Below are positions 11,772 through 39,440 of a stretch of 64,000 nucleotides of DNA, in pieces. The translations under genes were made by a program, and so were the position numbers. The first letter of the stretch is position 1. Every line of letters begins with the position of its first letter. Below the pieces are notes generated by a model. It did not search any database and was not told where the DNA came from. It saw only the letters and a program-made list of their open reading frames with translations. Source of the DNA: Bacillota bacterium (GTDB taxonomy: Bacteria; Bacillota; SHA-98; UBA4971); assembly GCA_050261335.1 (NCBI GenBank), contig JBLNDE010000064.1, positions 74,165 to 138,164 on the forward strand, written 5' to 3'.

Positions 11772-12140
11772 GGATCTCTCCTCCCTTCAGACCTGCTGTC
11801 CGCTACGGTTGAGCCTTCCCGCAACCAGAGCCGGGAGGCGAGGCCTCCGACATCTTCGATTGGGGCGTCCTGCGGCCCCTCCCGCGCACTCGCCGTCCCT
11901 TGTGGTAGGCTGTACGGACTAGGACCTTGGCGACATTCGTCTCCGGTTGCAGGTAAGTCGCTCCAGCCCCAGTGGGGCGGCTCCGCAGTTCTTGCGACTC
12001 ATTGACGCCCGATGCCGCCTTCAGGGGCGGCCACGTCGTCGCCCGACCTCGCGGCCCGCGCATCGGGCCAGTGCCTTCGGACCCGCCTCATCCCCCGCCC
12101 TGAACTGCGGGGCGTACGCCGGCCGTGCTCTGGTCAACGT

Positions 12141-14477: not shown

Positions 14478-15025
14478 TCACCTCCCGCCCTTGACACTTC
14501 GGCAGCCGGCGCGTGCCCCGCCGCCTGACCAGCCGGGGCCGCCCCGGCCGCGTCGGCCGCCTGGGCCGCCTGGGCCGCCTGCATGATGGCGTCCACGATG
14601 CGGGCATAACCCGTGCACCGGCACAGATTGCCGCTTATGGCCTCGACGACCTCGTCGCGCGTCGGATTGGGGTTACGTATCAGCAGCGATTTGGCGGACA
14701 TGACCATCCCGGGTATGCAATACCCGCACTGCAGGGCCGAATTCTGGACGAAGGCCTCCTGCACCGCGTCGAGGTCTTTCGCGTCGCCAAGGCCCTCAAC
14801 CGTGAGCACCTCCGCACCATCAGCCTCCACCGCAAGCATCAGGCACGAATTGAGGGGCTCGCCGTTCACCAGCACCGTGCAGGCACCGCACTCACCGCCG
14901 CCGCATCCCTCCTTGGCGCCGATGAGGTCGAGGTCCTCGCGAAGGAAGTCCAGCAACCTCCTGTGAGAGGGCACGCAGGCTTCGACCCATTCGCCGTTGA
15001 CCCTGACGCGTATGTTGTGAAGCAT
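14474..15025 (-). CDS. Xanthine dehydrogenase-family [2Fe-2S] small subunit
   Basis: CGGGECGACTV and CGYCIPGM / CRCTGY cysteine motifs; ATGA-type overlap with large subunit. Confidence 0.9.
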   Translation of the reverse strand: MLHNIRVRVNGEWVEACVPSHRRLLDFLREDLDLIGAKEGCGGGECGACTVLVNGEPLNSCLMLAVEADGAEVLTVEGLGDAKDLDAVQEAFVQNSALQCGYCIPGMVMSAKSLLIRNPNPTRDEVVEAISGNLCRCTGYARIVDAIMQAAQAAQAADAAGAAPAGQAAGHAPAAEVSRAGGE

Positions 15026-15046
15026 GGCCTATCCTCCCCCTCTCTT

Positions 15047-15910
15047 CTACCTGCCGCCCGCGGCGAGGCCCGCAAGCGCCTGCTCGATGGCCCGCGCTGC
15101 CAGCACCTCCGTCATCTCGAGCCGGTACTCCTTGCTTGCACGGATGTCACTGATGGGCGCCGCGCGGCGCCTTGCCGTCGCGGCCGCTTCCCTGATGGCA
15201 CCCTCGTCCTTGCGGCTTCGCACGATGGCCTCCGCCTCCTTCACCCTTATCGGCGTCGGAGCGACCGCGCCAAGGGCGATGCGCACCTCTCCGCCTTCCA
15301 GCGCCAGGACTGCGACGCTCGCAATCGCAAGGTCGACCGCGCTCGTCCTTCCGAGCTTCAGGTACACCCCGTAGGACCGCTCCTTGAGGACAGGGAGCCT
15401 TATCTGGAACACGAACTCACCCTCAGCGAGCGCGGCGGTCCCAGGGCCCCTGAAGAACTCGCCAACCGGGATCTCCCTTGGGCCGGACGGTCCCCACGTC
15501 ACGATCTCCGCTTCATAGAGCAACAGGGCGGGAGCAGTGTCAGCAGCCGGTGATGCGTTGCTGATGTTCCCGCCCAGAGAGGCACGGTTACGAATCTGCA
15601 GGGAGCCGACGGTGTGCGCCGCCTCCGCAAGAAGGCAGTACTTCGAGCGCACCGCTCCATCCGTTATCAGGCGGTTTAGAGGAGTGGCCGCTCCGATCAC
15701 AAGGCCTTCGCTGTCGCAGCAGCCGATGGCCTGCATGCCATCGATCCCCTTAAGGTCGATAACCACCCGGGGCCTGAGTTGCCTGTCGTGCATACGCACC
15801 AGGAGGTCGGTGCCTCCGGCCAGGAACTTGCCATCGGCTCCGGCCCGACAAGCCAGGTCCACCGCCTCTTCTCTGCTTCGCGCCCGGACGTAGTCGAAAG
15901 GTAGCAGCAT
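15047..15910 (-). CDS. Xanthine dehydrogenase-family FAD-binding medium subunit (CoxM/XdhB-like)
   Basis: …FLAGGTDLLV…SLGGNISNASPAADTAPALL… FAD-binding PCMH fold. Confidence 0.85.
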   Translation of the reverse strand: MLLPFDYVRARSREEAVDLACRAGADGKFLAGGTDLLVRMHDRQLRPRVVIDLKGIDGMQAIGCCDSEGLVIGAATPLNRLITDGAVRSKYCLLAEAAHTVGSLQIRNRASLGGNISNASPAADTAPALLLYEAEIVTWGPSGPREIPVGEFFRGPGTAALAEGEFVFQIRLPVLKERSYGVYLKLGRTSAVDLAIASVAVLALEGGEVRIALGAVAPTPIRVKEAEAIVRSRKDEGAIREAAATARRRAAPISDIRASKEYRLEMTEVLAARAIEQALAGLAAGGR

Positions 15911-16094
15911 CTTCCGCCCTCCTTCCTCCGTACTGGTTGCGCGACTTTATGCTCGTTGTGTGTCTACTTATGCATCACGCTCACGACTTCGCTATTTTCT
16001 GGCAGGAACCCTTCGTGACGGTCAACAAAACGCCAGAGACTGAAGTAGATACCTGTCACAACCCGACCACGGTACAGCTGGGAGCCTCTGGCCC

Positions 16095-16889
16095 TCACGC
16101 TTCCTTCTCATCGAACGCCACGATACGACAGATGGACGACTCCCCGCCCACGAACCTCCACGGGAAGCAACCGATGACAAGCCTCCTGTTGAGGATCTCG
16201 TCGATGTCGCCCCCGACGTTCTCGGCATGGATTATGTCGTAGGGGAACAGCGCGGTGTGCATGACCTGGTAATCCTCGGGCCGGAAGAAGTCGTCGAGGC
16301 CCTTGCCGTATCTCTTCCTGAGGTGCTCGTCGGCCTCCCTTGCCTGCACCGGCATCCACTCGCGGATCTTCGTGTTCATCGGGTGATCGGCTGACCCGCA
16401 GTCCACCGCGAGCCACTTCAGCCTCATCTTCCTGCACCAGTCCGCGAACTCCCGCGCAGGGCCTGGGTGCTTGATCATGTACCGCACTTCGTCTGCCTCA
16501 GGTTGATCCCATGCGTAGTGATGGTAGCCCGTGTGGATGACCAGGATATCCCCCTCGCGCACCTCCACGCGCTCGGTGATGTCCAGCGACGTGTAGATCC
16601 CGTAGTCCTCGGCGATGTCGCTCAAGTCCACGACGACGCCGGGGCCCACGAGGTACTCAAGGGGCAGGCTCGCTATGTCTTTGCCATGAGTGCAGAAATG
16701 CAGCGGCCCGTCGAGATGGGTCCCAACGTGGTTCGACGTCGTGATGAGCTGGCCGTTGGCACCGTTGGGGCTGAGCCGCTTGAAGAACTTCATCTGAAGC
16801 GGCTCGTAGGTCGGCCAGGGCGGCGTGAGATGACTCAGCGGCTGTGTCAGATCGTACATCTGCACCTTATCCCAGAACGACAACACCAC
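16095..16889 (-). CDS. Putative cyclase-family protein (arylformamidase/kynurenine formamidase-like)
   Basis: HxGTHxDxPxH motif (SNHVGTHLDGPLHF). Confidence 0.75.
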   Translation of the reverse strand: MVLSFWDKVQMYDLTQPLSHLTPPWPTYEPLQMKFFKRLSPNGANGQLITTSNHVGTHLDGPLHFCTHGKDIASLPLEYLVGPGVVVDLSDIAEDYGIYTSLDITERVEVREGDILVIHTGYHHYAWDQPEADEVRYMIKHPGPAREFADWCRKMRLKWLAVDCGSADHPMNTKIREWMPVQAREADEHLRKRYGKGLDDFFRPEDYQVMHTALFPYDIIHAENVGGDIDEILNRRLVIGCFPWRFVGGESSICRIVAFDEKEA

Positions 16890-16904
16890 AAAACCCCTCC
16901 TTAC

Positions 16905-17122
16905 ATGCTGAAGTCTAGGTAGATCGCCACAAGTTCGCGCTGCTTTTCAGCGGGTTAGTCCTGTCCAGGGTTGCCGGTGTTGCCCTCCGGGGACGGCGCG
17001 CTTGCCACGCGCCTCGTTCGAATTTGGCGCGCGGGCTAGCCAAATTCTCGACGCCCCGTCGTGCAACCACCGGCAACCCCAACACCGTCAGGGAAGATGG
17101 CGCAAACTTATGGCGCCATACT
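16905..17122. mobile_element. MITE-like dispersed repeat, variant A (reference copy)
   Basis: ctaggtagatcgccacaagttcgcgctgcttttcagcgg…ccagggttgccggtgttgcc…cgcctcgttcgaatttggcgc…ctagccaaattc…caccggcaacccc…gatggcgcaaacttatggcgccatact; TIR AGATCGCCACAAGTT / AACTTATGGCGCCAT. Confidence 0.85.
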
Positions 17123-17135
17123 TGAATGCTGCGGC

Positions 17136-18547
17136 TCACGCATATCTCTCGGCAAAGGCCAGAAGCGCTTTCTCGAAACATTCCCATGGCGGGGTCACGA
17201 GCCCCGCGCCGACCTGTCCTATCCCGGGGTCCTTGTGGGCGACGCCCGTGTTTATCTGCGGCAGAATTCCGGTCTCCACCACCTTTCGAAGATCGATTCC
17301 GGTGGGCGTCCCGCGAAAGCCCAGGACCGGTATGCTGAAGAACCTGTTCTCCGTCATGGTGATGCGGTACATCTTCCTGGAGAAACCGAGGGCATCGTCA
17401 GGCGTGCCGCCGACGAACTGCACGATTGGAATGGCGGCCGCCATGGCGAACCCGCCCAGCCCCGCCGTCTCGGTTATCGAGGAGTCGCCGATGTCCGGGT
17501 TCGCGTCCTCGTCACGGAAGCCTGGGAAATAGAGGCCCTTCACCTTCTCGGCCGGGCCAACGAACCACTCGCCTCCAAGCCCGCTCACCTTGATACCGAA
17601 ATCCGTGCCGTTCCTGCTCATGACGGTGACCATGGTGCTCTTCGGCACCCCGTGGGCCGCCTCCAGCATGGCTTTGGCGGCCGGCATGGAGAGGTTGAGG
17701 AAGAAGTGATCGTTGCCGTTCATAAACTCGAGGACGCGACGGATGTCGGCAAGGGGGAAGCCCGTGTCGAGCAGGTATGGCGCTACGGTGCGGATGAAGA
17801 GCGAGGTCGCGGCCCTGTTGCGGTTGTGCACCTCGTCCCCCATGTGCAGGGCCTGGGCGATTATGGACTTGAGGTCGATGCCCCCGGAAAGCTCAATAGC
17901 GTTGGCAAGGACAGGCGCGAGGACGTCAGCCATCCACCTCAGCCTGTCGAGAACCTCGCTGCTATACGCCCCATACCGCAGGACCTTTCCCAGACCCTCG
18001 TTGAGAGTGCAGTACGACCTGTTTCCGGCGGTCCTGTTCTCGATGATGAACACAGGCATGGATGGGGAGACGACGCCCGCCATCGGGCCGACGGCGGAGT
18101 GCTCATGGCACGGGGAGAACTCCACGTCTCCCTCGACCGCGATTCCCTCCGCGTCCTCCGGCGATGCGGCCCAGCCTTCGTAGACGATCGCCCCGACGAT
18201 CGCCCCCTTCAGGGGACCTGACATTCTGTCCCACGTGATGGGTGGGCCCGCATGAAGGAGCATCTTTCCGCCGAAGCCCGGGATGACGTCGCGAGCCCTT
18301 CCGACGCCGACGAGGACCGGCTGCGCGGAGCTGTACCTCTCGAGCGCGAGGCGGTTGGCCTCCTCGATGTCCTCTCTGCCCGCCAGGACATCCAGGATCT
18401 CGATGAGCTCGAGCTTGCCGCGGGCGGGCGGTTCCCACAGGACTTCGTACACGCTTGCACCCTGATCGCGCATGGACCTGGCAAACACGCCGCTGCCCAG
18501 GTTGACGATCGCCCCGGTGGGAGGCCAGTTCTTCACCATCGCCATGC
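17136..18547 (-). CDS. DUF1116-family protein (YlbE/AllG-like, oxamate carbamoyltransferase subunit)
   Basis: ~470 aa after start correction to MAMVKNWPPTG (GGAGGG RBS); clustered with FdrA and DUF2877 as in E. coli allFGH. Confidence 0.7.
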
Positions 18548-18619
18548 TCTCATCCCTCCTCGCCCACGAGCCGGCACGAACACCTTGGCTCGCCCCCGCG
18601 TTTTCGAGAAATCGGCACA

Positions 18620-20233
18620 TCACCGTGAGAAGCGTCCTGACCCGAGCAGTAAGGCCACAAGCCTCGCAGCGGCGTGATTGGATGACAAGACGACTGCGCC
18701 CGCGTCGCGAAGGGCTTTCTCCTGCCCTGCCAGACCCTGCGGATCCCCGGAAGTGCCGACGACCACAGCGATCTGGACGAGGGCCCGGCCTTCGCATCGG
18801 GCGATCTCCGCTGCCTCCCGGACCGCCTCCGCCATCACACCCGCCGGGTCTGGATGACACCCGTACCCGAGCACCACGTCGAAGAGGAGAATGCCGACAT
18901 CGGGATCGCGCGCTTCACGGAGGTATCTCGGCGCACGAAGGCCGGGTTCGAGCATCGGGTGCGGCCGCCCCCTCGTGAAGTAGTCGTCGCCCAGGTCGAC
19001 ACATGTGTGAGCGTGGCTCATCTCCGGGTCCTCGAGCAAGAGCTCCGGCCGCCAGGCAACGTTCGAGTACACCTCTATCCCCGACCGCGCAAGGACCGTC
19101 ATAGTCTCCTCGCACAGAGTACCGCCGCCGTATAGCCCCCGGAGATGGCCGCCCGCGCGGCCTGCGCCGCCGCCCGCACCAGGCAGGCCCGCCACGACGC
19201 CTCGAAGGATCGCCTCCATCTCTTCCTGTGGATACAGTTCCCGGCCCGCCCCCGCGCCTGACAGCGAGCAGGCAACGACGGCGGCCTCCTCGAGGTCTCG
19301 TGCGAACCTCACCTTCCCCGCCCCCGCCCCGGGCAAGTCACCTTCTTCGCCCATGAAACACACGACCGAGGGTTTGCTGCCGCCCTCGAGAGCGGCTATC
19401 ACCCGCCGGCGCACCTCGTCGTGAGGCGGCTTGGATATGACCATCTTCACGGCGGTGGCCTCGTCCTGTTCCAGGATGTCAATCCCCATCAGCGTGGTTA
19501 TGGCCCCGATCTCTCTGCGCAGATCGCGGCCTCCGGTGCCTATGGCATGAGTGATCCCCTCTCCCAGCCTGTCGATGACGGCGAGCGCCTGCTGCAGCCC
19601 CGTTCCCGAGGCCGCCACGATGCCGATGCGCCCGGGCCGCACCTTGTTTGCAAATCCCAGGCCGATGCCCCCAATGACAGCGGTGCCGCAGTCAGGCCCC
19701 ATGACGAGGAGGCCCTCCCTGCGGCCCGTCTCCTTCAAAACCCGCTCGTCCTCGAGCGAGACGTTATCGCTGAAGAGGAATACGTGCAGCCCCCGCCTGA
19801 GGGCTGCGCGTGCCTCGCGCGCTGCATAGGTCCCCGGCACCGAGATCGCGGCGATGCCGCCTCCGCCGATGGGGACCTCCGAAAGCGACGAATAGACCGC
19901 CTCCGGTCGGGTAGGCTCTGCCCCCGTCGTGGGCCTGGGTTTGCTCTCCAGCCTGGCTGCAACCACCTTCCCAGCCTCGTCGAGGATCCGCTCTTCTTCG
20001 CCCACGAGAGCAACGATGAGGTCGTTCGGCCCGGCGTCCTGCAGCTCCGGGTCGGCGAAGCCCATCGCTCGCGCGCTGTCCTTGTTCAAGTCGGTCGCCA
20101 TGCCCACGAGGGCGCTGGTGATCCCGGCAAGCCTCTGCACCTCCTGGGTCAATCTCATCAGGACAACCGAGTCATAGTAGGCGTCCTTCTTGACCGTCAG
20201 CCGCTCGAACACCAGGCATACCTCCTCTGCCAC
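18620..20233 (-). CDS. fdrA: FdrA-family protein (CoA-binding/succinyl-CoA-synthetase-like; AllF-like)
   Basis: N-terminus aligns with E. coli FdrA (…KKDAYYDSVVLMRL…); CoA-ligase-like ATP-grasp/flavodoxin halves. Confidence 0.75.
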   Translation of the reverse strand: MAEEVCLVFERLTVKKDAYYDSVVLMRLTQEVQRLAGITSALVGMATDLNKDSARAMGFADPELQDAGPNDLIVALVGEEERILDEAGKVVAARLESKPRPTTGAEPTRPEAVYSSLSEVPIGGGGIAAISVPGTYAAREARAALRRGLHVFLFSDNVSLEDERVLKETGRREGLLVMGPDCGTAVIGGIGLGFANKVRPGRIGIVAASGTGLQQALAVIDRLGEGITHAIGTGGRDLRREIGAITTLMGIDILEQDEATAVKMVISKPPHDEVRRRVIAALEGGSKPSVVCFMGEEGDLPGAGAGKVRFARDLEEAAVVACSLSGAGAGRELYPQEEMEAILRGVVAGLPGAGGGAGRAGGHLRGLYGGGTLCEETMTVLARSGIEVYSNVAWRPELLLEDPEMSHAHTCVDLGDDYFTRGRPHPMLEPGLRAPRYLREARDPDVGILLFDVVLGYGCHPDPAGVMAEAVREAAEIARCEGRALVQIAVVVGTSGDPQGLAGQEKALRDAGAVVLSSNHAAARLVALLLGSGRFSR

Positions 20234-21132
20234 TCGGCGGCAAGATAGATACCGACCCCCATATCGAACCCGGAGGTTGCACCGATGCTGACAAGCCTTG
20301 TTGCCCCATGAGCCGTTTCGCGTGGTTCACCTGCGAGGAGATAATAGAGGGCGTCCTCCGCGAACTCATGGCCCCTCCCCCCGAGCGCCTCCCGGACAAG
20401 AAACCCGCTTAGAGCATGGGTGCGGCCGAGCGCCTCCCGGACGGCGTCCTCCCAGAACCCATCCGGCTTCCCACACGCCTTCCGCACCACGGCTCTCGCA
20501 AGGCAAAGACCCGCGACCAGATCGTCCCCGCTCGGTGTAAGCCCCGGCCCGAAGCCCACGAGGCCACCAAGGGCCGCGCGCAGCCGCGCGCCGTGTGCGG
20601 CCTCGACCGACGCCCTGAGGCCGTCGACAAGAGCCACGATGCCCCGGCCGGGCACGCCGTTGCCGTCGATGGCCCCGCGAATCGGCGATGGCGCCGGGAC
20701 CCTGAGCAGGGTGTCGAGAAGCGCCCGGAGGTTCGCCTCGCGCACGTCATCCACCATCAACGCGGCAAGCTTGCTTTCCCACGCCATGGCGGAGCCGAAA
20801 TCCACGACGACCTCCGGCCCGAGTCTCACCCACCTCCCGCTGCAGGCCTCGACCTCCAACCCGGGCGCAATCCCGAAGTCGAGGAACGACTCCCCCGCCG
20901 CAACCGCGACTGTGGCCCAGGTCGCTCCGCATCCGCGCGAAAGAGGCAGCAGGGTGAGGAACTCCTGCCCGTCCCACAGGTTGAGGGCCCCTGCGAAGAC
21001 GCTGTGGACCAGATAGCGCCGTACGCCGGAGAGAAGATCGCAAAAGCGCGGCCCTGCCTGAACCGCGCCCAGGTATCTTTGCGCTCCTCCGGCCGGGATC
21101 CTGTCCATCGCCCTCTCCATGACATAGCTCAC
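20197..21132 (-). CDS. DUF2877-family protein (YlbF/AllH-like)
   Basis: Size and position immediately upstream of fdrA; Gly/Ala-rich, no other domain recognised. Confidence 0.55.
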   Translation of the reverse strand: MSYVMERAMDRIPAGGAQRYLGAVQAGPRFCDLLSGVRRYLVHSVFAGALNLWDGQEFLTLLPLSRGCGATWATVAVAAGESFLDFGIAPGLEVEACSGRWVRLGPEVVVDFGSAMAWESKLAALMVDDVREANLRALLDTLLRVPAPSPIRGAIDGNGVPGRGIVALVDGLRASVEAAHGARLRAALGGLVGFGPGLTPSGDDLVAGLCLARAVVRKACGKPDGFWEDAVREALGRTHALSGFLVREALGGRGHEFAEDALYYLLAGEPRETAHGATRLVSIGATSGFDMGVGIYLAAEWQRRYAWCSSG

Positions 21133-21258
21133 CTGGTTTCCTCATTTCAGTAATTCCAAGCCGGCCGGGCGCATACCTTTGTGAAACCATCATAAAGTTC
21201 CGGCGCCTGTTCTGTCACAGTTCCCCCCCTTGCCCCCCTGTCCCTTACGCAGCCGCCG

Positions 21259-22959
21259 CTACGCCCCGGCCTCGTCGGAGCCGTATATCCTGAAGAGCCG
21301 CAGGGCCGTCTGGAGGGTCAGACGCTGGTCGGGATGATACGGGTCGAGGCCCGTCAGCTGCTTGATCTTGTTGAGCCGGTACAGCACGGTGTTATAGTGA
21401 GTGAAGAGTAGCGCTGCGGTCCTTTTGGCATTTCCGTTGGTCTGGAGGTACGTCTCAAGGGTCTTCAGGAGTTCGCCGCCCCTGGATGTGTCATATATCC
21501 GCAGCGGGTCCACCACCTCTGCGGCAAACCTCCTCTGCTCCGCGACATCAGATTGCCCCAGGAGGAGCCGGTATACCCCAAGCGCCTCGTAGTGAACGTC
21601 GCGCCCCCCGCCGAAGATGGTGCGCCCCAGCTCGAGTGACGCGCGCGCTTCACGGTAGCTCTTCCTGAGACCGTCTGCCCCCTTCCCGGGGCGGCCGACC
21701 CCGCACGTAACTGTCCAGCGCTGGATGTTCTTGCGGGCTTTCTTGATGGTGTCGTCCACCCACGCAACAGCGTCGCGGCCTGTAATGCCCTCCGGATGCA
21801 GGAAGAGCAGTATCCCGCTGGCATGGCTGGTGAGTATGTGCTTCAGCCTGTTCCTGCGGCAGAAGTCGCCGAGAATGGTCGTAGCCTGGGCCTTGGCAAG
21901 CTGGCAGGCTCGCTCGTTCTCGGCTATGTTCTCGATCCTGTTGCTGGGTCGCACATCGAGAAGCACGGCCACATACTCGAGGCCAAGGTCCCAACCGAAC
22001 GTCTTCCCCCTCGCCATGAACCTCTCCTGGTCCGGATGGTCGGTGGAGAAGAGCTGGTCCAGGAACTCGGTGCGATACTTCTGTTCCACCTGGACGAGGC
22101 CATGGTGACGGATGATGTCGAAGGATATGAGCGGGCACAGGCGCTCGAGGTTGAGAAGGTCCAGCACGGTAAAGCTATTCTCGAACTTCGCCGCCTTGAT
22201 GGAGCCGAACTGCTCGTTGGCGCTCGTCACCGGCACCCGCACCACCTCGGCCCTGTAACCATCGCCCTCGACCTGCTCGCGCTGGAACGATAGCACTGTG
22301 CCCTCTACGCTGTCGGTGAGCGTCTCGGTGGCAAGGAGATCTGCGGGCCGGTCCAGAATGGTGCGGACGAGGTCTGCCGTCCCCCTGCCCCAGTTCTCAC
22401 CGGCGAACGCTCGACGAAGGTTGAGCGAGTCCTCCACGAGCACGGTGGCCTTGAGCAGGTCCGCGAGGGCGCTTGCGATCTCCTCGAGGCCTCCGCCTTC
22501 CACGATAAGATTCATGAACTTGCGGTGCACAGCCATGCCGAGCTGCACGAACCTCGCCTGGCGATTCACAATCTGCGCCAGCACCGCTGAAATGAGCTCG
22601 GAAAAGCTTACCTCCGGCGGCAACTCGAGAAGCGGCAACCCATACTCGTCCGCAGCCTCTACCATATGAGAAGGCACCGTATCGATGTACCGCTTGGGCT
22701 TGAACGCCACCGCCGCGAGGCCCTTCGCCGCAAGCCTCGGAAGAAGGGTCCTCTGGGCTTCCACGTCGTCCTTGATGGGGTAGCCTGTGGTGAGAAGAAG
22801 GTCCCCCTCCCTGATCCACTCCAGAATGTCTGGCACCTCCATGACATTGACGTTTGTCACGACCCGGCCGAGTCCCTGGCGCCCTCCCGTCACCTTTGCA
22901 CCGATGAACGCCGGGAGCGTGAGGACCTCCTCCACCGTTATGCCGACCTCGTGCAGCAT
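21259..22959 (-). CDS. pucR: PucR-family purine catabolism transcriptional regulator
   Basis: 566 aa, N-terminal PucR-type sensory region, C-terminal PucR HTH (…KRTAALLFTHYNTVLYRLNKIKQLTGLD…). Confidence 0.8.
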   Translation of the reverse strand: MLHEVGITVEEVLTLPAFIGAKVTGGRQGLGRVVTNVNVMEVPDILEWIREGDLLLTTGYPIKDDVEAQRTLLPRLAAKGLAAVAFKPKRYIDTVPSHMVEAADEYGLPLLELPPEVSFSELISAVLAQIVNRQARFVQLGMAVHRKFMNLIVEGGGLEEIASALADLLKATVLVEDSLNLRRAFAGENWGRGTADLVRTILDRPADLLATETLTDSVEGTVLSFQREQVEGDGYRAEVVRVPVTSANEQFGSIKAAKFENSFTVLDLLNLERLCPLISFDIIRHHGLVQVEQKYRTEFLDQLFSTDHPDQERFMARGKTFGWDLGLEYVAVLLDVRPSNRIENIAENERACQLAKAQATTILGDFCRRNRLKHILTSHASGILLFLHPEGITGRDAVAWVDDTIKKARKNIQRWTVTCGVGRPGKGADGLRKSYREARASLELGRTIFGGGRDVHYEALGVYRLLLGQSDVAEQRRFAAEVVDPLRIYDTSRGGELLKTLETYLQTNGNAKRTAALLFTHYNTVLYRLNKIKQLTGLDPYHPDQRLTLQTALRLFRIYGSDEAGA

Positions 22960-31606: not shown

Positions 31607-31870
31607 ATGAGTGACATCGCTCTTCGCATTCTCACGATGACGAAGGTAGTCCTGGACGCTCGCGCCTCCTCGGTGATGCTCCCGGGATCGGAGGGAGATC
31701 TCGAGGTGCTGGGCAACCATACCCCGCTGGTGACGGCCCTTCGCCCGGGTCGCATCGTTGCCGCCTGCAACGGCGAGCACAAGGATATCCAGGTGGCCGG
31801 CGGTTTCGTGGTCGTCACGCCCCGCCGCGTCGACGTGCTGGCGGACCTTGCGGAAGTCACGCCTCGATGA
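31607..31870 (+). CDS. atpC: F0F1 ATP synthase subunit epsilon, truncated (beta-sandwich only, 87 aa; C-terminal helical hairpin absent)
   Basis: Typical epsilon N-domain; stop overlaps convergent GGDEF gene. Confidence 0.8.
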   Translation: MSDIALRILTMTKVVLDARASSVMLPGSEGDLEVLGNHTPLVTALRPGRIVAACNGEHKDIQVAGGFVVVTPRRVDVLADLAEVTPR

Positions 31871-33488
31871 CCCGGTTGCGCCCCTCCCTCTTCCCGCGAT
31901 AGCACGCCATGTCAGCGAGGTAGATGAGGTCTTTCTTGGTCCTGGCGTCGGCGGGGTACGTGGCGACCCCTACCGTGACGGTGACACGCCCGCTCGGTAT
32001 CTGGTCCTCGTGGGGGAACGGATATGCCTCTATCCTTGCCCTGATCTTCTCGGCCACCCTGAGCGCGTGCGCCTTCTGCGCCTCCAGGAGTATCACCACG
32101 AACTCCTCTCCGCCATACCTCGCTACTATGTCAGTGGACCGAACGGACCTCGTGAGGAGCCTTGCCACCGCCTTCAGCGCGGCGTCGCCTGCCGGATGCC
32201 CCAGCACGTCGTTGTACTGCTTGAAGTCGTCGATGTCCACCATCAGCAGAGACAGATAGCGACCGTAGCGCTCGCACCTGGCAAGCTCCTCTGTGAGCCT
32301 CTCCTGGAAGTGTCTGTGATTGAACAGCCCCGTCACCGAGTCCGTTATGGCCAGCCTCTCGGCTATCCGGTGCAGCCGTGTGACCTCAGCAAGCTGCCTG
32401 TCGAGCCTGGCGTTGACCCGCTTGAGCTCCGTCTCGCTCTTCTCGAGGAGTTCGTTCTTGGCCTTGAGCTCCCGGTAGAGCCTGGCGTTCTCAATGGCGA
32501 TGGCAGCCTGGGTGCCGATGGTAGACATGATCCGTACATGGTCCTCTTCAAACCGCTGGGTGTAGCTCTGCACCGACATGACCCCGATGACGCTCTTCTG
32601 AACGGAAAGCGGCACCGCAATCACGGATAGAGGTTTGTCCCCGAGCATGATGGCTTCTGTCGGCACATGCTCCATGTCGGTGGACGAGTCTCTTATGAAC
32701 AGGGGTTTGCCAGACCTTATCACCCACTCGGTGAGCCCCTTCCCGGTGGGATATGGCCTCGTGAAGCTGGCCACGCGCACCCCATGGTCCACCAGTATCT
32801 CGAACCTGATCTCCTGTGCCTGCTCGTCGAAGAGGGCCACGAAGAAGGATTCGTTGCCTATGATGGCCGCCACTTGCTCGTACATGACCTCGAGGAGCGC
32901 CGAAAGATCGAGTACGGATGTGGTTGCGACCCCCACCCTGTATATGCTCATCATCTCCGCGGCAAAGCGGCGCGCTTCCTCGGTCTGGCGGCGCAGTTCC
33001 TCTTCGAGCTGCCTCCTCTGGGTAATGTCGCGCACCACGCCCTGGATAGCGCTGGGGGCGCCTTCCCTGTCGATGACGCTCATATTGATCTGGCAGCACA
33101 CTGACCTGCCGCCGTCTCCCGTCAGCTCTACGTCCAGCATCTGGCAGTCGCTGGAGGCAGCGCCCGGCGAGAGCGCAGCGGCGACCTCATCATGGCACGT
33201 GCCGGCCACGACATCGAAGAGCTTGCGCCCCACGAGCTCGTGGGATCCGCACCCGAGCATCGCCGCAAAAGGCTCGTTTACGTAGGTGATGGTGCCGTCC
33301 GGGTCCACCACGAACATGCCGTCGCTCGCGTTTTCAATGAGCTGTCGGTACTTTGCCTCCGACTCGGACAGGTCTCTGATGGTGGCCCTTACCTTCCTGC
33401 TCAGGGCCCTGTTGGCCGTCACCGTGGCGAGCACGACGAAGAGGAGCGCCCCCAGGATCGTCAGCGTCATGAAAAGGGCCATGGACAT
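31857..33488 (-). CDS. Diguanylate cyclase (TM + PAS + GAF + GGDEF)
   Basis: C-terminal …RYGGEEFVVILLE… GGDEF A-site; PAS and GAF regions upstream; start chosen at MSMALFMTL. Confidence 0.85.
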   Translation of the reverse strand: MSMALFMTLTILGALLFVVLATVTANRALSRKVRATIRDLSESEAKYRQLIENASDGMFVVDPDGTITYVNEPFAAMLGCGSHELVGRKLFDVVAGTCHDEVAAALSPGAASSDCQMLDVELTGDGGRSVCCQINMSVIDREGAPSAIQGVVRDITQRRQLEEELRRQTEEARRFAAEMMSIYRVGVATTSVLDLSALLEVMYEQVAAIIGNESFFVALFDEQAQEIRFEILVDHGVRVASFTRPYPTGKGLTEWVIRSGKPLFIRDSSTDMEHVPTEAIMLGDKPLSVIAVPLSVQKSVIGVMSVQSYTQRFEEDHVRIMSTIGTQAAIAIENARLYRELKAKNELLEKSETELKRVNARLDRQLAEVTRLHRIAERLAITDSVTGLFNHRHFQERLTEELARCERYGRYLSLLMVDIDDFKQYNDVLGHPAGDAALKAVARLLTRSVRSTDIVARYGGEEFVVILLEAQKAHALRVAEKIRARIEAYPFPHEDQIPSGRVTVTVGVATYPADARTKKDLIYLADMACYRGKREGRNRVIEA

Positions 33489-33674
33489 CTGTCGCTGGGT
33501 CGCGAAGAGCGGGCCTTCGACGGGAATGGCCAATACACCGCCAGGGACGGCGGAGCCTGCAACCGCTCCCAGGCAGGGCCACGGATGTGCGCTGTCCACA
33601 TTCGCCTCCGGCATCACGGCCACCTCCCTCGCGGCCCCTGGGGGCTTCCGGGCCTCATGAGGCAACGCTGCCGC

Positions 33675-34724
33675 CTACTTCTCAGGCATCTTGCCTGTCT
33701 GCCTCAGGTACTCGAAGAAGGACTCCTGGTCGGCGAACACCTTTGTGCAATGGAACTTCAGAAACGGGCTCACGCGCTCCTTGAAGATCGCGTAGACTTC
33801 CTTGTTGTTCGTGGAGCCGTAGATGATCTCGCACAGCACCCCCGGGGATGTCTTGTCAGTCGGATAGTACACGACCACCATGTCGCTCTGGTCAATGAGC
33901 ATGTAGTCGCGGATCACCGTCTGGTCTGCTATCTCGCTCCTCTCTGATGGGGCGACTCCGAACTCCGGGTCTATGTCGGCAAGACTGTACGTCTTCGCTT
34001 CTTCCTTACTGACACCGTATGTGAGTTCGGTATCCTCCACGGCGAGGGGGTCGAAGACCTCGAAGTGCTCTCTCAGTCTGTCCCGGAACTCCCTTACCTC
34101 CTGCATCTTCGCGGAGTCGTTGTGCATGAGTGTTATTGGAAAGCTCAAGTATACCCTGGGGACCTCAGACCTGAACATGAGGTTGTAAACGGTGCTCGCG
34201 GGTTGACCCGCCGCCACCACGTAATGAGGCTTGCGCTGGTAAGACGCCATCATCTTCGTCACGAAGATCTCCTCGTCGCGCCAGATGAGGACGTCTTTCA
34301 GTGACAGCCTTCCCCGCCACACCGGCGATTCCTCGAGCCTCTTCGAGACGTTGAGGATGCTATCTATCAGGGTGATGTAGAGATCGGGTTTGAGCTCGTT
34401 GAGATAATGCACGTCAAATGCAGGCATGAGGTAGTTCTTCCAGCGGAAGCAGCCGTGCGTGGAGATGATGCAGTTCTCGACCTTCTCGGCTTTCTTCAGG
34501 ATCTCCTCGAAGACCGCGGCCCGGAGCGACCGCAGCGTCGAGGGAGACAGGTCGAGTATCTTCTCGGGGCTCGTGGGACTCTCGAGTTCGTCCGCTTTCT
34601 TGAACATGAGGTCCCCGACGTTGAAAAGATGAACCTTCTTGCCGAGCGCCTCTCCGGCGGCAACCGCCCCCTTGAGGTAGTCGAGCTTGCCCGAACCGCT
34701 GGTGCCCGTGCATATGACCTTCAC
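33675..34724 (-). CDS. Two-domain protein: N-terminal P-loop (nucleotide/nucleoside kinase-like, GTSGSGK) + C-terminal nucleoside 2-deoxyribosyltransferase / DNPH1(Rcl)-like domain (SPGVLCEIIYG catalytic-Glu motif)
   Basis: Walker A MKVICTGTSGSGKL; C-terminal VYLSFPIT…DMVVVYYPTDKTSPGVLCEIIYGSTNNKEVYAIF matches NDT/DNPH1 fold motifs; GC visibly lower (~57%) than flanks. Confidence 0.6.
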   Translation of the reverse strand: MKVICTGTSGSGKLDYLKGAVAAGEALGKKVHLFNVGDLMFKKADELESPTSPEKILDLSPSTLRSLRAAVFEEILKKAEKVENCIISTHGCFRWKNYLMPAFDVHYLNELKPDLYITLIDSILNVSKRLEESPVWRGRLSLKDVLIWRDEEIFVTKMMASYQRKPHYVVAAGQPASTVYNLMFRSEVPRVYLSFPITLMHNDSAKMQEVREFRDRLREHFEVFDPLAVEDTELTYGVSKEEAKTYSLADIDPEFGVAPSERSEIADQTVIRDYMLIDQSDMVVVYYPTDKTSPGVLCEIIYGSTNNKEVYAIFKERVSPFLKFHCTKVFADQESFFEYLRQTGKMPEK

Positions 34725-34793
34725 GTATAGAACCCCTCCCGGCGAAAACGTTCGACGCCTGTTGACAGACTCCTCCTCCGCGCGCCGCCGGCC

Positions 34794-36140
34794 CTACCCG
34801 GCGAACCTTTCCAGCACGAGGGCCATGTACTTTATGCCCTCGAGAAAGTCAGACACGTTCACGTTCTCGTCTGGCCCATGAACCCGCGACCCGACGTTGC
34901 CGATGCCGATACCTGCGGCTGGCGTGCCGAACTGGGCCGCTACCTGGTACATGGGGCCTGTGCCGGCCGACGTCGGGAATACCAGAGGCTCTTTCGCGTA
35001 GAGCTCGACCACGGTCTCCCGGAGCACCTTCACGATGCGCGAGTCCGGATCGGTCCTGGCAGGGTGCTCGGCACCGAGCCACGTCACGCGGAAGTCGCCG
35101 CAGCCCTTTGTCCTGAGGTAGTCCTCGAACTTCCTCGTTATGTCAGTGGGCCGTTGGTCAGGCACCAGTCGCATGTCCAGCTTGGCCATGGCCCGGCTGG
35201 GAAGGACCGTCTTCGAGCCAGGCCCCTCATATCCAGCGGAAAGACCGCACACGTTGCAGGTAGGCCCGAAGTAGAGCCGCTTCAGGGCCTCCGTGCCGAC
35301 CAGACCCAGCACGAGCCGATCGACGCCGAACTGCTTCGCGAGGCGTCCGGGGTCTGCGGGGAGCTTTTCGATGAGCGCGACCTCCCCGGGGCTCGGCTCT
35401 CGGACGTCATCGTAGAACCCGGGAATCAGGACCTCCTCCCTGTCGTTCTTCAGCGAGCTGAGCGCCCAGACCAGTCTCCACGCGGGATTGGGCACGACCG
35501 CAGCGAGCGAGGAGTGCAGGTCGAAGCTGCCGCCGTCCACCTCGATGTGGGCATAGCACAGGCCCTTGCAGCCCAGCGTGATCTCGAGCCTGCCTTCCTC
35601 ATCGCGGCCTCCCGTCTCCCATATGCACGCGTCGGCTCGGAAAACCTCCGGGTGTTCCCGCGCGTAGCGCTCAAGGTTAGGGCTGCCGATCTCCTCCTCG
35701 CCTTCCGCCACGAACTTCACTGTCACGGGAAGGCTTCCCCTCGTGTCGAGAAGCGCCTGCACGGCCTTGACGCGTGCGACGAGGTCTCCCTTGTTGTCGG
35801 CTACCCCCCGCGCGTACACCTTCCCTCCGTCGATCTCGGCGCCGAAGGGATCATGCTGCCATCTATCGAGGGGCTCCGGCGGCTGCACGTCGTAGTGGTT
35901 GTAGAAAAGGAGGGTTCTCTCCCCGCCGCCCGGTATTTCCGCGGTAACGAGCGGCGCGGCCTCCCCCGCGCGCAGTACCTGCACCGTCGCGCCAAGGGAG
36001 GAAAACATGCGTTCAACGACCCTGGCGGCATCTTCCACGCCCTTGCCCTGGGCTGAGATGCTTGGCTGGCGCAGGAAACCCTGCAACTCCCTGACGAACT
36101 CGGATGCATGACGGTCTACATAGTCGAAGACTTCGTTCAT
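34794..36140 (-). CDS. M20-family metallopeptidase (dipeptidase PepV/Sapep-like)
   Basis: M20 catalytic + dimerisation-domain pattern (…HYDVQPPEPL…GVADNKG…EGEEEIGS…); start at 36140 (ATGA overlap) or 36227. Confidence 0.75.
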   Translation of the reverse strand: MNEVFDYVDRHASEFVRELQGFLRQPSISAQGKGVEDAARVVERMFSSLGATVQVLRAGEAAPLVTAEIPGGGERTLLFYNHYDVQPPEPLDRWQHDPFGAEIDGGKVYARGVADNKGDLVARVKAVQALLDTRGSLPVTVKFVAEGEEEIGSPNLERYAREHPEVFRADACIWETGGRDEEGRLEITLGCKGLCYAHIEVDGGSFDLHSSLAAVVPNPAWRLVWALSSLKNDREEVLIPGFYDDVREPSPGEVALIEKLPADPGRLAKQFGVDRLVLGLVGTEALKRLYFGPTCNVCGLSAGYEGPGSKTVLPSRAMAKLDMRLVPDQRPTDITRKFEDYLRTKGCGDFRVTWLGAEHPARTDPDSRIVKVLRETVVELYAKEPLVFPTSAGTGPMYQVAAQFGTPAAGIGIGNVGSRVHGPDENVNVSDFLEGIKYMALVLERFAG

Positions 36141-37990
36141 CTCGAACCAGATCCCCCTGACGTCAAATGATGCCCGCGCCGCGGCACGACCCGGGGCGGG
36201 GCTTCCAGGCGACGGCGAAGCCACCACCCGCCCGCCGAAATGCCCGCGAGGACCGGCGAAGACAGGCCGATGACCGTCGTCTGAAGCAGGTCCATGTAGT
36301 GCTTGAAGGCCCTGTGAAGGTCCGGCAGATGCCGGCTGAACCGTACACCCTCGCTCATAGCGAATACCGCAGACTGGGCGGCAAGAGACAGCACGATGAC
36401 ATACGCACAGGTCACACCGGTCACCAGCGCGTCAAGGGGCCGTCCGCGCCGCCGCCACGCCAACCACCCCGAAACCGCTGCAGCAAGGATCCCGCAAAAG
36501 GCCGAGTCCAGCATTCTTCCGGTGAAGAACGGCACGACCTCGCTCTCGCTGTTGAACACGCTCATGGAAAAAGAGACCCCGCGCGCGAAGACCAGGGCGT
36601 AGAAGGCGCCGAAATACGCGGTCGCCGCAATGAGGGGAATCCTTACGTTTCGAACGTCTCTTCCGACGAGAAGCACGAGCCCGAAGGCGAGGCCCCCGAG
36701 CACGAGGGCGATCACCGGCAGTCTCTTGAGCCTTCCCACACCGAGAAATCGTTCACGCGCGTCCGATATCGCCGTCGCCGTATCCGCATCCATGGCAAGC
36801 GCGAGATCGAACGCCTCGTCATAGCGGCCATCGTTGTGAAGCAGCGTAGCGCTGGACACGGGTTCTATCGCAGGAAGCCGACTTCCGAGCACTCCGACGT
36901 ACTCCTCGGCGAAAGCACGCCTCGCCTCCGCCTGCCTTATCGCCCTTTCGGAGGCCACGTGTCGGGGCGCGTCGAGCGCCTCGAAAAGGACCCGGCCCTG
37001 TGAGTGCGCGGGAACGGGCATCCCGAGCAGGGCCGCGCAGGTGGGAGCCACGTCCACATGGCGTGCAGGCGCCCATGGAAGATCCGGGCCTGGATGCGCC
37101 GGCGTGACTATCCCCGCCCCGGCGGCCACCAGCGGCACCCTGGTCACGTCTTCCTCCCACCCTCCGTGCCCGCCTCGCCCTGTGTGCCCGTGGTCGGACG
37201 TCACGATTATGGTGTCGCTGGTGAGGTCGAGATCTGCCAGGATCTTCCCGATCCTCGCATCCACCTCGGACGACGCCTCCTTGTAGTCTGCGCCTGCCGC
37301 TCCCGAGGCATGCCCCGCGGCGTCGACCGACGAGAAATGCACGACGATGAGGCAGGTGCCAGTCCGTTCCATCTCGCCGAGAGCTGCACGGAGAACCTCA
37401 TCGTCGGTCTTCCTGGCCGCGGCGACATCCGCCGGACCGGGTGCATCGACATAGATAGCACGGGCCACGGACGCACCGAGAAGTTCCTTCCACTCTCTGG
37501 TCGCGATGAGAGCGGTCCCTGTTCCGGCGCGCCGCGCTGCGCCGAAAAGGTTGTCCACCGCGATGGGCCCCCTGTATCCGTTGGTGGTCACTCCGGAGAT
37601 CTCCGGGGGTGCACCCGTGAGCAGCGTGGTCCACCCGGGAAACGAAAACGACGGCTGATCTACCAGGAGCGAGAACGCCGCGCCGCGGCTGCCGATATCC
37701 TTCAGCACTGGCATCTCATCGGTCCCGGCAAACCCGAGACCGTCGACGATTACCAACACGAGCCGTCTCGTGAGCCTCCCCGCGGCATCAATGGTCTCGA
37801 TGGGGGACGTATACGGACTACGGTATCCCACGACGTCATGCAGCCCCGAGGTGGCAAGATGCCACGAGACTGCACCCAGACCCATCATGACCGCAAACGC
37901 GAGAACAGCCGCGGTTTTCCGGTCTGGAAACAGCCTGCCCGGAAGTCGCCTGAGCCGGAGCCGCTTCGCCGCTCCACCTTCACCCGACAT
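36137..37990 (-). CDS. Alkaline phosphatase-family (type I phosphodiesterase/nucleotide pyrophosphatase-like) protein with C-terminal polytopic membrane domain
   Basis: …VLVIVDGLGF… and …IIVTSDHGHTGRGGHGG… metal-site motifs; ~6 TM helices C-terminal. Confidence 0.75.
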   Translation of the reverse strand: MSGEGGAAKRLRLRRLPGRLFPDRKTAAVLAFAVMMGLGAVSWHLATSGLHDVVGYRSPYTSPIETIDAAGRLTRRLVLVIVDGLGFAGTDEMPVLKDIGSRGAAFSLLVDQPSFSFPGWTTLLTGAPPEISGVTTNGYRGPIAVDNLFGAARRAGTGTALIATREWKELLGASVARAIYVDAPGPADVAAARKTDDEVLRAALGEMERTGTCLIVVHFSSVDAAGHASGAAGADYKEASSEVDARIGKILADLDLTSDTIIVTSDHGHTGRGGHGGWEEDVTRVPLVAAGAGIVTPAHPGPDLPWAPARHVDVAPTCAALLGMPVPAHSQGRVLFEALDAPRHVASERAIRQAEARRAFAEEYVGVLGSRLPAIEPVSSATLLHNDGRYDEAFDLALAMDADTATAISDARERFLGVGRLKRLPVIALVLGGLAFGLVLLVGRDVRNVRIPLIAATAYFGAFYALVFARGVSFSMSVFNSESEVVPFFTGRMLDSAFCGILAAAVSGWLAWRRRGRPLDALVTGVTCAYVIVLSLAAQSAVFAMSEGVRFSRHLPDLHRAFKHYMDLLQTTVIGLSSPVLAGISAGGWWLRRRLEAPPRVVPRRGHHLTSGGSGSR

Positions 37991-38031
37991 ACCATCCCTC
38001 TCCCTGCAAGGGCGTGAGCCCCGCCGTCTTT

Positions 38032-38907
38032 CTATAGAGTTTTCGACGGGCCTGCGCGCTTCCCTTCACCTGAGACAACCTTGCGCCATCTCACGTCGAG
38101 GTCGTCCACAACGCTCCCCGGCACGTACACGCCGCCGAGCACGGCAGGCTCGTCTGGCGCTATGCCGTGGAAGTCGCTTCCGCCCGTCACGATGAGTTCG
38201 AGGCGTCTGGCGGTGTCTGCCCACCGCCTGGTCAATTCGGGACCGTGAGTCGGATAGTATGCCTCGATCCCCTCAAGACCTGCCTCTACGAGTTGCCCGA
38301 GGAGGGCGCCGCCGGCCGTCCTGCCGGGATGGGCCAGCACAGGCACACCTCCGGCGGTCAGTACCAGCCTGACGGCCTCCGCGGGAGTCAGCCCGTAGTG
38401 CTCGACGTACGCAAGGCCATGCTTTCCGAGGTACTTTTCGAAGTCACCGTAGCGTCGCTCCGCCCTTGCGTAGCCGAGATCGACCATAGCGCGGAAGATC
38501 TGGCTCCTGCCGACAAAGCCTTTCCTGCCGAGGCTCAGCACGTACGACATCGGGATTTCCATGCCAAGCCCGGCCAGCTTCTCCAGGATTCTCTCCGCCC
38601 GTCGAACCCTGCCTTCGCGCAGCACTTGAAGGCTCATGGTAAGTGTTGGCAACGATGTGTCCACATGGTATCCAAGGATGTGTACCTCGCTCTCCTCCAC
38701 GTCAGTGGAGAGCTCGACCCCGGGTATCACGCGCACGCCGAAACTGGTTGCCGCGAGCATAGCCTCCTGCACGCCGTCCACGGTATCGTGGTCTGTGACT
38801 GCGATGGTAGTCACCTTCCGGTCGGATGCCAGCCTCACGAGTTCCCTGGGCGAATAGCGCCCGTCAGACGCAGTCGAATGAACGTGCAGGTCCACCGTGG
38901 TCATCAT
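38032..38907 (-). CDS. PHP-domain phosphoesterase (TrpH/YciV family)
   Basis: VDLHVHSTASDGRYSP… PHP motif I; start MMTTVDLH with GAGGGGG RBS. Confidence 0.85.
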   Translation of the reverse strand: MMTTVDLHVHSTASDGRYSPRELVRLASDRKVTTIAVTDHDTVDGVQEAMLAATSFGVRVIPGVELSTDVEESEVHILGYHVDTSLPTLTMSLQVLREGRVRRAERILEKLAGLGMEIPMSYVLSLGRKGFVGRSQIFRAMVDLGYARAERRYGDFEKYLGKHGLAYVEHYGLTPAEAVRLVLTAGGVPVLAHPGRTAGGALLGQLVEAGLEGIEAYYPTHGPELTRRWADTARRLELIVTGGSDFHGIAPDEPAVLGGVYVPGSVVDDLDVRWRKVVSGEGKRAGPSKTL

Positions 38908-39009
38908 GAAAACCCCCTCGCACCCACTGCAGGAATCACCGCTCCTGTACATGCGATTATTGCCCGCGAGTCTCGGTTTATTTCGCGTGTCCGTGGACAT
39001 AATAGGCTT

Positions 39010-39440
39010 GCAAAGGTCCTCGCTGGGCCGAGCTAAGACCGCCGTGCGCCTTCTCTCGGGCGCTGCAGGCCCGGAAAGCCTCACGGCGATCGAGCGACAG
39101 GTGGCGCTTGTCCTTGCGTATGCAACGCTTGTGCCGCCCGAGCGAAGGTCAGAGTGCGGCCTCCCAAGGATCCGTCCAGGCCGAAAGGTCTTGCCGGGTT
39201 CGAAAGAAGTCGCTCCTGGCCGAGCCAAGACTTGCATTGGTCCGAAGGCAGTCTGTGTACGGTTGAAAGATCGCGTATGGTCTGCTCAGGATCTCTGCCA
39301 GTCGGTCAAAGGTTGCCTCTGGTTCTGCAATGTACTGCAGCTAGAGGTTGCCCCGGCCGAAAGGTCGTTGCGGCCTCACTAGGGATCAGAAGCAGCCGGC
39401 GAGAAGGTCCGCGAGGATCTTTGCCCTGTTTGTCATCTGC
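39010..39440. repeat. Array of ~7 degenerate ~40-bp direct repeats (consensus ~GGCCGARAGGTCnTTGCGGCC-TCnnnAGGGATC) in a 600-bp non-coding region
   Basis: Copies at ~39017, 39133, 39175, 39215, 39250, 39350, 39400. Confidence 0.5.

Follow-up and report, generated by a model that had tools for sequence, protein, structure and literature searches.

The 64,000-nucleotide stretch of DNA analysed here, referred to below as the window, comes from contig JBLNDE010000064.1 of a Bacillota bacterium and carries a gene whose product joins an N-terminal domain resembling archaeal-type adenylate kinase (AdkA) to a C-terminal domain resembling nucleoside 2-deoxyribosyltransferases (NDTs) and the nucleotide N-hydrolase DNPH1. 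An initial annotation, made from the sequence alone, had described a P-loop kinase fused to an NDT/DNPH1-like N-glycosidase domain, and had considered horizontal acquisition and an anti-phage role. The gene is real, chromosomal and strongly conserved, and the position of its GTG start agrees with 50 aligned homologs.

33675-34724, reverse strand: complete coding sequence, 349 amino acids, GTG start; AdkA-like N-terminal and NDT/DNPH1-like C-terminal domain (list of open reading frames, AlphaFold2 model)
34733-34740, reverse strand: Shine-Dalgarno-like GGGAGGGG, 8 nucleotides upstream of the GTG start, read directly in the sequence

The proposed architecture, with an N-terminal part like the P-loop nucleoside monophosphate (NMP) kinases, is borne out by Pfam, by profile and fold searches and by the conserved catalytic residues. 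AlphaFold2 modelled the full protein (51 homologs) with a predicted local distance difference test score (pLDDT) of 88.6 and a predicted template modelling score (pTM) of 0.88, and Pfam AAA_17 matches above its threshold at amino acids 6-133 (E 2e-10). The two domains are equally conserved, with an identity to the window protein of 0.43 for each. In the databases and literature searched we found no curated family model, solved structure or publication for an AdkA-NDT fusion, and we regard it as a new domain architecture and subfamily built from known kinds of enzyme.

The C-terminal domain

When amino acids 186-349 were modelled separately (pLDDT 86) and compared with the Protein Data Bank (PDB) by Foldseek, only NDT-superfamily structures were retrieved. 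The best match was the Desulfotalea NDT 7o62 (E 8e-7, template modelling (TM) score 0.74-0.81); further matches were YtoQ 8of6 (5e-6), human DNPH1 8rpt (5e-5), 1s2d, 8pqr, 6evs and 1f8x, and they include a purine deoxyribosyltransferase and the Chroococcidiopsis NDT. Weak matches to Pfam PF05014 (Nuc_deoxyrib_tr) in 49 of 51 relatives (E <= 0.01, best E 1.5e-6) add evidence of homology at the level of the superfamily.

33678-34169, reverse strand: C-terminal domain, amino acids 186-349, NDT/DNPH1 superfamily fold (separate model, Foldseek, PF05014)
34131-34151, reverse strand: beta1 motif Y192-L-S-F-P196-I-T; Pro196 98% conserved; family consensus YLSYPIT
33951-34046, reverse strand: variable low-confidence loop, amino acids 227-258, of varying length in the family; pLDDT below 50 at amino acids 237-252
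33906-33911, reverse strand: R272-D273
33828-33848, reverse strand: S293-P-G295-V-L-C-E299, with the predicted nucleophile Glu299
33762-33770, reverse strand: S319-P320-F321, after beta5; candidate equivalent of NDT Asn123 and DNPH1 Ser128, each completing the site of the neighbouring subunit

The motifs quoted in the initial annotation (YLSFPIT, SPGVLCE and KEVYAIF in this domain, CTGTSGSGK in the N-terminal one) are all present. Across 245 family members the active-site residues of the C-terminal domain are the most conserved positions of the whole protein: Y192 is conserved in 100%, D273 in 99%, S293 in 93%, G295 in 99.6%, E299 in 99%, S319 in 89%, P320 in 97% and F321 in 92%. An alignment of the S-x-G-x-x-x-E motif to DNPH1, first made by eye, was reproduced by hhalign: in the comparison of the family profile with human DNPH1 (sequence checked against PDB chains), R-D273 corresponds to Q-D80, and S293, G295 and E299 to S98, G100 and E104. 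In the comparison with Lactobacillus leichmannii NDT (checked as 1f8x), D273 corresponds to D72, S293 to D92, G295 to G94 and E299 to E98. The beta1 motif would be the counterpart of NDT YFGAGW and DNPH1 YFCGSIRGG, Tyr192 matching NDT Tyr7 by its position in beta1.

Ser293 thus stands at the position both of NDT Asp92 and of the phosphate-binding Ser98 of DNPH1, so that the window protein has no acidic residue there. In rat DNPH1 the side chain of Ser87 binds the 5'-phosphate and Glu binds the ribose hydroxyls (PMC3834327). A designed, phosphate-accepting NDT (4hx9) differs from the wild type, by comparison of the PDB sequences, in F13R, E91Q, D92G, V93T and N123S. The presence of Ser rather than Asp at position 293 follows the DNPH1 pattern, suggesting a 5'-phosphorylated substrate. 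Judged by its residues, the C-terminal domain looks like an active enzyme that cleaves the N-glycosidic bond of a 5'-phosphorylated sugar.

The N-terminal domain

Foldseek matched amino acids 1-185 to AdkA chains in the PDB at E values of 4e-12 to 1e-10 and TM scores (target) of 0.74-0.86 (6pjw, 3h86, 6ln3, 1kht). When the family profile was searched against the PDB by sequence, AdkA alone was matched (6ln3, E 1.3e-15), with no structure for the C-terminal domain.

34170-34724, reverse strand: N-terminal domain, amino acids 1-185, AdkA fold with its beta4-beta5 hairpin and helix alpha7 (Foldseek, profile search, Pfam AAA_17)
34686-34712, reverse strand: P-loop CTGTSGSGK, amino acids 5-13; Gly7 and Gly10 conserved; position 13 is Lys or Arg in 87% of relatives
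34455-34463, reverse strand: S88-T89-H90, counterpart of AdkA DTH; Asp replaced, by Ser, Asn or Ala in most relatives; His90 95% conserved
34302-34331, reverse strand: LID-like loop ESPVWRGRLS, amino acids 132-141, between alpha6 and alpha7 (AlphaFold2 secondary structure)

The strands of the beta4-beta5 hairpin were modelled at amino acids 92-95 and 98-101. The most invariant residues of the domain (H90, F93, W95, W148 and E152) lie in or next to this hairpin, where H90 ends beta3, and in alpha7; beta4-beta5 and alpha7 are the elements through which AdkA trimerises, according to a paper that also describes the AdkA LID (PMC10883716). The family also has signature motifs of its own, HACFRWK and W-RGRLSLKD-x3-WRDEE.

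The domain had been called a kinase, with a Walker A motif typical of nucleoside or nucleotide kinases. The kinase label is uncertain, as several catalytic and AMP-binding motifs of AdkA are missing; the Walker A motif is present but atypical, with no Ser or Thr after the Lys. In profile alignments and column frequencies, GK[ST]T of AdkA is replaced in the family by G[KR]xx, Arg being commoner than Lys and again not followed by Ser or Thr. The profile alignment further shows EEKILD in place of the AMP-site motif DRDxxR, and no Walker-B-like motif. The protein scored 40.6 bits against the NCBIfam AdkA equivalog (NF003122), which has a cut-off of 155. In about 30 full-length relatives the P-loop is without its basic residue or one of its glycines, and all of these keep the Y/D/S/G/E set of the C-terminal domain. 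We infer that the N-terminal domain is a module for nucleotide or phosphate binding and for oligomerisation, with kinase activity uncertain. In methanococcal AdkAs (1ki9, 6pjw, 3h86) the P-loop is GVPGVGGTT, with Gly at the canonical position of the Walker A Lys.

These features bear on the main rival to the function that we favour below, a bifunctional salvage enzyme in which the C-terminal domain would swap bases on (deoxy)ribose 5-phosphate and the N-terminal domain would phosphorylate the resulting (d)NMP to the diphosphate, (d)NDP. The N-terminal domain is conserved as much as its partner and retains the full AdkA topology, and the window protein keeps GSGK, Arg68, His90, Arg129 and the LID residues Arg137 and Arg139. 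The designed NDT 4hx9 can transfer phosphodeoxyribose after changes at positions that are Ser in this family, and a characterised HGPRT/adenylate kinase fusion follows the same logic from base to NMP to NDP (PMC7326950). The replacement of DRDxxR and of the DTH Asp, and the missing Ser or Thr after the P-loop Lys or Arg, however, argue against phosphotransfer, as do the P-loop, which in a sizeable minority of relatives has lost its basic residue or a glycine, and the LID, where the two arginine positions are basic in only 67% (Arg137) and 53% (Arg139) of relatives. Taken together, we consider such an enzyme rather unlikely.

Distribution and variants of the family

A word-indexed search returned 179 relatives, comprising a tight clade of 74-91% identity and then proteins of at most 51% identity, mostly archaeal. 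An exhaustive search returned about 467 clusters at 50% identity (E <= 1e-30), and both domains are present in all of the best 150 representatives. The family occurs in at least 593 of 185,579 species genomes, scattered sporadically over taxa that include Thermoproteota, Chloroflexota, Planctomycetota and Bacillota. Bacterial carriers are an uncultured Bacillota clade (best match 97%, in the metagenome-assembled genome (MAG) Yes71-24), Anaerolineae/Chloroflexota, Planctomycetota, KSB1 and Ignavibacteria; archaeal carriers are Thermofilaceae, Bathyarchaeia, Nitrososphaeria, Brockarchaeota, Conexivisphaerales and a Korarchaeota-like MAG. In a neighbour-joining tree, the deep branching of which was not used as evidence, the Bacillota sequences group together as a single clade with a long stem. 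One contig binned as 'Betaproteobacteria bacterium' (L019, JBLNCC010000121.1) carries a copy of the fusion gene with 88% identity; the remaining close relatives, 74-97% identical, are all from Bacillota/Clostridia MAGs, and the contig was probably misbinned, a transfer being the less likely explanation.

Relatives are usually named 'adenylate kinase', and also 'AAA family ATPase', in the JGI and NCBI annotations. Such names imply that the protein is the cell's archaeal-type adenylate kinase with an inert or purely structural extra domain, and AdkA is indeed the best match of the N-terminal domain by both sequence and fold. The low equivalog score and the missing AMP-binding and Walker-B-like motifs argue against this explanation, and conservation that is highest at the C-terminal domain's active-site residues is incompatible with an inert appendage. 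Adenylate kinase is, moreover, universal, whereas this family occurs in only about 600 or more of the species genomes. We therefore regard a plain adenylate kinase as very improbable.

Within the Bacillota MAG clade the gene order is conserved as PHP, Phosphodiest-like membrane protein, M20 peptidase, fusion gene and GGDEF gene. M20 and GGDEF are variably present, and the PHP and phosphodiesterase-like genes lie directly upstream of the fusion gene throughout the clade (L001-L006, L016-L024). Neighbours in other lineages include ribosomal-protein operons, ribonucleotide reductases, pyruvate kinase and F420 genes. Over 21 lineages, neither BLAST clustering nor a Pfam census of 137 neighbours revealed a recurrent neighbour family (maximum ABC_tran, 4/137).

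Some members depart from the two-domain plan. Six proteins of about 570-615 amino acids (P0122, P0124, P0126, P0138, P0141, P0166) have an extra N-terminal region of about 200 amino acids before the normal unit. In the three that were read (P0122, P0124, P0166) this region is a tandem duplicate of the AdkA-like domain, and both copies in P0122 and P0124 keep the H-x-x-F-R signature. P0208 has a NUDIX domain appended at the C-terminus of the two-domain unit (PF00293, E 1e-12), which points to mono- or dinucleotide substrates and fits nucleotide hydrolysis or sanitation. In P0219 the variable loop of the NDT-like domain holds an inserted ComEA-type helix-hairpin-helix (HhH) module (PF12836, E 9e-14; HHH_3 at amino acids 273-327).

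The last two variants would suit an enzyme for a larger phosphorylated substrate, such as a dinucleotide of the NAD+/ADP-ribose type or a nucleic-acid end, with the adenylate or polynucleotide part bound by the P-loop domain and an N-glycosidic bond cleaved by the NDT-like domain; the fixed two-domain arrangement indicated by the model's high pTM of 0.88 would be in keeping with this. Such variants are, however, rare among the best 150 representatives, the window protein has only a short, disordered loop at the place of the HhH insertion, and mononucleosides or mononucleotides are the substrates of all the closest structural relatives. A larger substrate thus appears improbable.

Base composition, selection and the defence hypothesis

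A GC content of about 57% against about 67% for the neighbours had been taken as compatible with horizontal acquisition. At 0.568 the fusion gene does have the lowest GC of the real genes nearby, though by a smaller margin than that estimate: the window mean is 0.637 and the flanking genes are at 0.626 (GGDEF), 0.649 (M20) and 0.653. GC at third codon positions (GC3) is 0.811, like that of the neighbours (0.80-0.85), and the deficit sits in the first (0.54) and second (0.35) positions. When the GC expected from the amino-acid sequence was computed with the synonymous codon usage of 28 other genes of the window, it came to 0.566. The codon fit of the gene (+0.009) is average, the values of individual genes spreading over -0.004 +/- 0.057. 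In composition the protein favours K, E, S, Y and F and has few G, A and R. Since expected and observed GC agree, the low total GC results from the amino-acid composition of the protein, and the gene provides a clean example of low GC that is due to protein composition and not to foreign origin.

Recent transfer was thus rejected by the GC3, expected-GC and codon-fit tests, and the conserved synteny likewise speaks against acquisition. Inside the Bacillota clade the ratio of nonsynonymous to synonymous substitution rates (dN/dS) is 0.056-0.070, synonymous sites being saturated between sub-clades. Selection, native codon usage, conserved synteny and the ordinary neighbourhoods in other lineages suggest a vertically inherited gene of housekeeping type, which forms part of the reading favoured below.

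The anti-phage role, in which a horizontally acquired conflict effector would deplete or modify the nucleotide pool, is largely refuted. NDT-like folds are found in some conflict systems, and the patchy distribution over two domains of life and the low total GC might be taken as signs of such an effector. The GC argument, however, falls with the amino-acid composition, which accounts for it wholly. The fusion protein matched 0 families of PADLOC-DB at E <= 10, and searches of 50,697 phage records, of 72,556 plasmids and of the IMG/VR contigs gave no relatives. No defence or mobile-element genes recur in the neighbourhoods of the 21 lineages, where ribosomal-protein, ribonucleotide reductase, glycolysis and F420 genes are found instead, and the Bacillota clade combines retained synteny with strong purifying selection. 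Of the functions suggested initially, nucleotide salvage or cleansing is still the most plausible class.

Proposed function

We favour, with a probability of about 0.5, a housekeeping N-glycosidase or base-exchange enzyme for 5'-phosphorylated (deoxy)nucleotides that carries an AdkA-like nucleotide-binding and oligomerisation domain. The folds, the residue conservation, the selection, the synteny and the distribution are results of the analysis; the class of substrate, the chemistry, the oligomer and the part played by the N-terminal domain are deduced. The catalytic core would be the C-terminal NDT-superfamily domain, in which the N-glycosidic bond of a 5'-phosphorylated (deoxy)ribonucleotide would be cleaved via a covalent intermediate between the sugar and Glu299, with assistance from Asp273 and Tyr192. 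The 5'-phosphate would be held, as in DNPH1, by Ser293 and probably by Ser319 from the partner subunit. The intermediate could be resolved by water, yielding base and (deoxy)ribose 5-phosphate, or by another base, which would amount to base exchange at the nucleotide level. The P-loop of the N-terminal domain would supply phosphate or nucleotide binding, and the domain may serve as an ATP/NMP-binding regulatory module or deliver the substrate; phosphotransfer may be retained in Lys-containing clades such as that of the window protein. AdkA-type trimerisation, probably through the N-terminal domain, together with NDT-type dimerisation would make a hexamer possible. Physiologically, such an enzyme would act in nucleotide catabolism or salvage, or in the removal of unwanted nucleotides, rather than in phage defence.

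Several observations weigh against this reading. Pfam PF05014 reaches only 22.4 bits at amino acids 227-315 (E 1.5e-4) against a gathering threshold of 28.8, which stops short of curated membership. The Gly-rich phosphate loop that follows beta1 in DNPH1, GSIRGG, is absent, and the window protein has SFPITLM there (Y-L-S-F-P-I-T-L-M-H). The correspondence of S319 to DNPH1 Ser128 and NDT Asn123 is only positional, as the hhalign alignment ends before it. On the N-terminal side, the motif arguments against catalysis are weak because methanococcal AdkAs also lack the P-loop Lys, and kinase activity is possible for the window protein, which has an intact GSGK P-loop and the LID arginines. The HhH variant hints that some members may bind nucleic acid.

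A more ambitious form of the proposal is speculative. The family might represent an unrecognised class of nucleotide N-glycosidases gated by ATP or nucleotides, or else a kinase-coupled phospho(deoxy)ribosyltransferase of natural origin, with AdkA-type trimers and NDT-type dimers assembling into a hexamer. It might convert nucleotides to pentose phosphate and bases, or re-base them directly, in slow-growing scavengers (Thermofilaceae, Bathyarchaeia, Anaerolineae, Phycisphaerae and the Bacillota clade), by a route distinct from AMP phosphorylase, Amn and PpnN.

If the favoured reading is correct, a widespread prokaryotic DNPH1-like nucleotide N-glycosidase is coupled to an adenylate-kinase-like module and now goes unnoticed in hundreds of MAGs, where it is named 'adenylate kinase' or 'AAA family ATPase', a systematic mis-annotation. 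Models of nucleotide scavenging in uncultivated anaerobes would gain a step, and the family might yield a natural enzyme for base exchange on phosphorylated sugars, so far obtained by protein design alone (4hx9).

Genes in the window

The neighbours reported initially, a GGDEF gene and a peptidase gene, were found as described. Beyond the M20 peptidase, further upstream, follow a membrane-anchored Phosphodiest/NPP-like gene and a PHP-domain gene, all on the same strand as the fusion gene.

31857-33665, reverse strand: PAS-GAF-GGDEF protein, downstream of the fusion gene
34794-36227, reverse strand: M20 peptidase, upstream of the fusion gene (longest open reading frame)
36137-37990, reverse strand: phosphodiesterase-like gene (longest open reading frame)
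36137-39237, reverse strand: span of the phosphodiesterase-like gene together with the PHP gene

The fusion gene had been said to stand alone. It has no conserved partner across lineages, but within the window it lies in a run of genes of the same direction, and neither side of it has a terminator-like site (the terminator scan of the window was at chance level overall). A promoter scan of the window was likewise at chance level, and its 64 kb (1-64000) yielded neither a tRNA or tmRNA nor any Rfam family at gathering threshold.

The phosphodiesterase-like gene encodes a membrane-anchored protein of about 600 amino acids similar to type I phosphodiesterases/nucleotide pyrophosphatases (PF01663, E 2e-20), homologs of which have no Pfam family in precomputed annotation. 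The longest open reading frames of this gene and of the M20 gene overlap by 91 nucleotides; M20 has 477 amino acids in the window against only 285 as called in the relative L001, and its true start probably lies further downstream. A GAF-PAS sigma-54-dependent transcriptional activator at 2345-4486 on the reverse strand (Sigma54_activat, E 6e-69) and the PAS-GAF-GGDEF protein make this a signalling-rich region.

A purine-catabolism cluster occupies 10518-22959 on the reverse strand, 11-23 kb from the fusion gene and separated from it by ATP synthase genes.

10518-11771, reverse strand: xanthine/uracil permease
12141-14477, reverse strand: molybdopterin subunit of the xanthine dehydrogenase family
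17136-18860, reverse strand: AllG oxamate carbamoyltransferase subunit
21259-22959, reverse strand: PucR-family regulator

A functional link to purine catabolism was considered from this cluster, from a xanthine-dehydrogenase-like gene near the Conexivisphaerales homolog and from an adenine deaminase gene near the Chloroflexota homolog, and was dropped, since it does not recur across lineages.

Comparison with known systems

The N-terminal domain shares with AdkA (6ln3, 6pjw, 1nks and OdinAK 7owe) its whole topology, including the archaeal-specific beta4-beta5 hairpin and alpha7, as well as the TG-x-x-G start of the P-loop and T-H from DTH; the window protein also has a short LID-like loop that carries Arg. 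It differs in G[KR]xx, EEKILD and [SNA]TH, in its own signature motifs and in remaining below the equivalog cut-off.

The nucleosidases Amn and PpnN/LOG convert NMP to base and ribose 5-phosphate, with a nucleotide-binding regulatory part that controls the N-glycosidase. This is the reaction class proposed for the fusion protein. Amn, however, has a different catalytic fold and LOG is only distantly related; no search with the fusion protein gave a sequence match to Amn or LOG/PpnN.

The HGPRT/adenylate kinase of Zobellia galactanivorans (PMC7326950) likewise fuses an adenylate-kinase-type domain to an NMP-making enzyme that works by N-glycosidic-bond chemistry. Its partner has the type I phosphoribosyltransferase fold and its kinase is of the bacterial type, so that no homology to the C-terminal domain described here is implied.

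DNPH1/Rcl, the 2'-deoxynucleoside 5'-phosphate N-hydrolase that also acts as a 5-hydroxymethyl-dUMP N-hydrolase, has the fold of the C-terminal domain. Its S98-L-G-V-G-Y-E104 aligns with S293-x-G295-V-x-x-E299, and both have Ser at the phosphate position; the conserved Ser after beta5 is a candidate counterpart of DNPH1 Ser128. DNPH1 is, however, a single-domain dimer, whereas the fusion protein adds a 185-amino-acid AdkA-like domain and a variable loop of 30 amino acids; SFPIT replaces GSIRGG, and identity is about 15-19%.

NDTs (PF05014; L. leichmannii 1f8x, Desulfotalea 7o62) are the best structural match, with TM scores of up to 0.81. The equivalents of Asp72 and of the nucleophile Glu98 are conserved in the fusion family, and a Pro-containing beta1 motif is common to both. 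Sugar specificity is not fixed within the NDT fold, as illustrated by the archaeal N-ribosyltransferase AvNRT (PMC7308715). Unlike NDTs, the fusion protein stays below the Pfam threshold and is joined to a kinase-like domain, and Asp92 of the nucleoside-specific enzymes is Ser, a change in the same direction as that in the phosphate-accepting 4hx9 (D92G, N123S, F13R).

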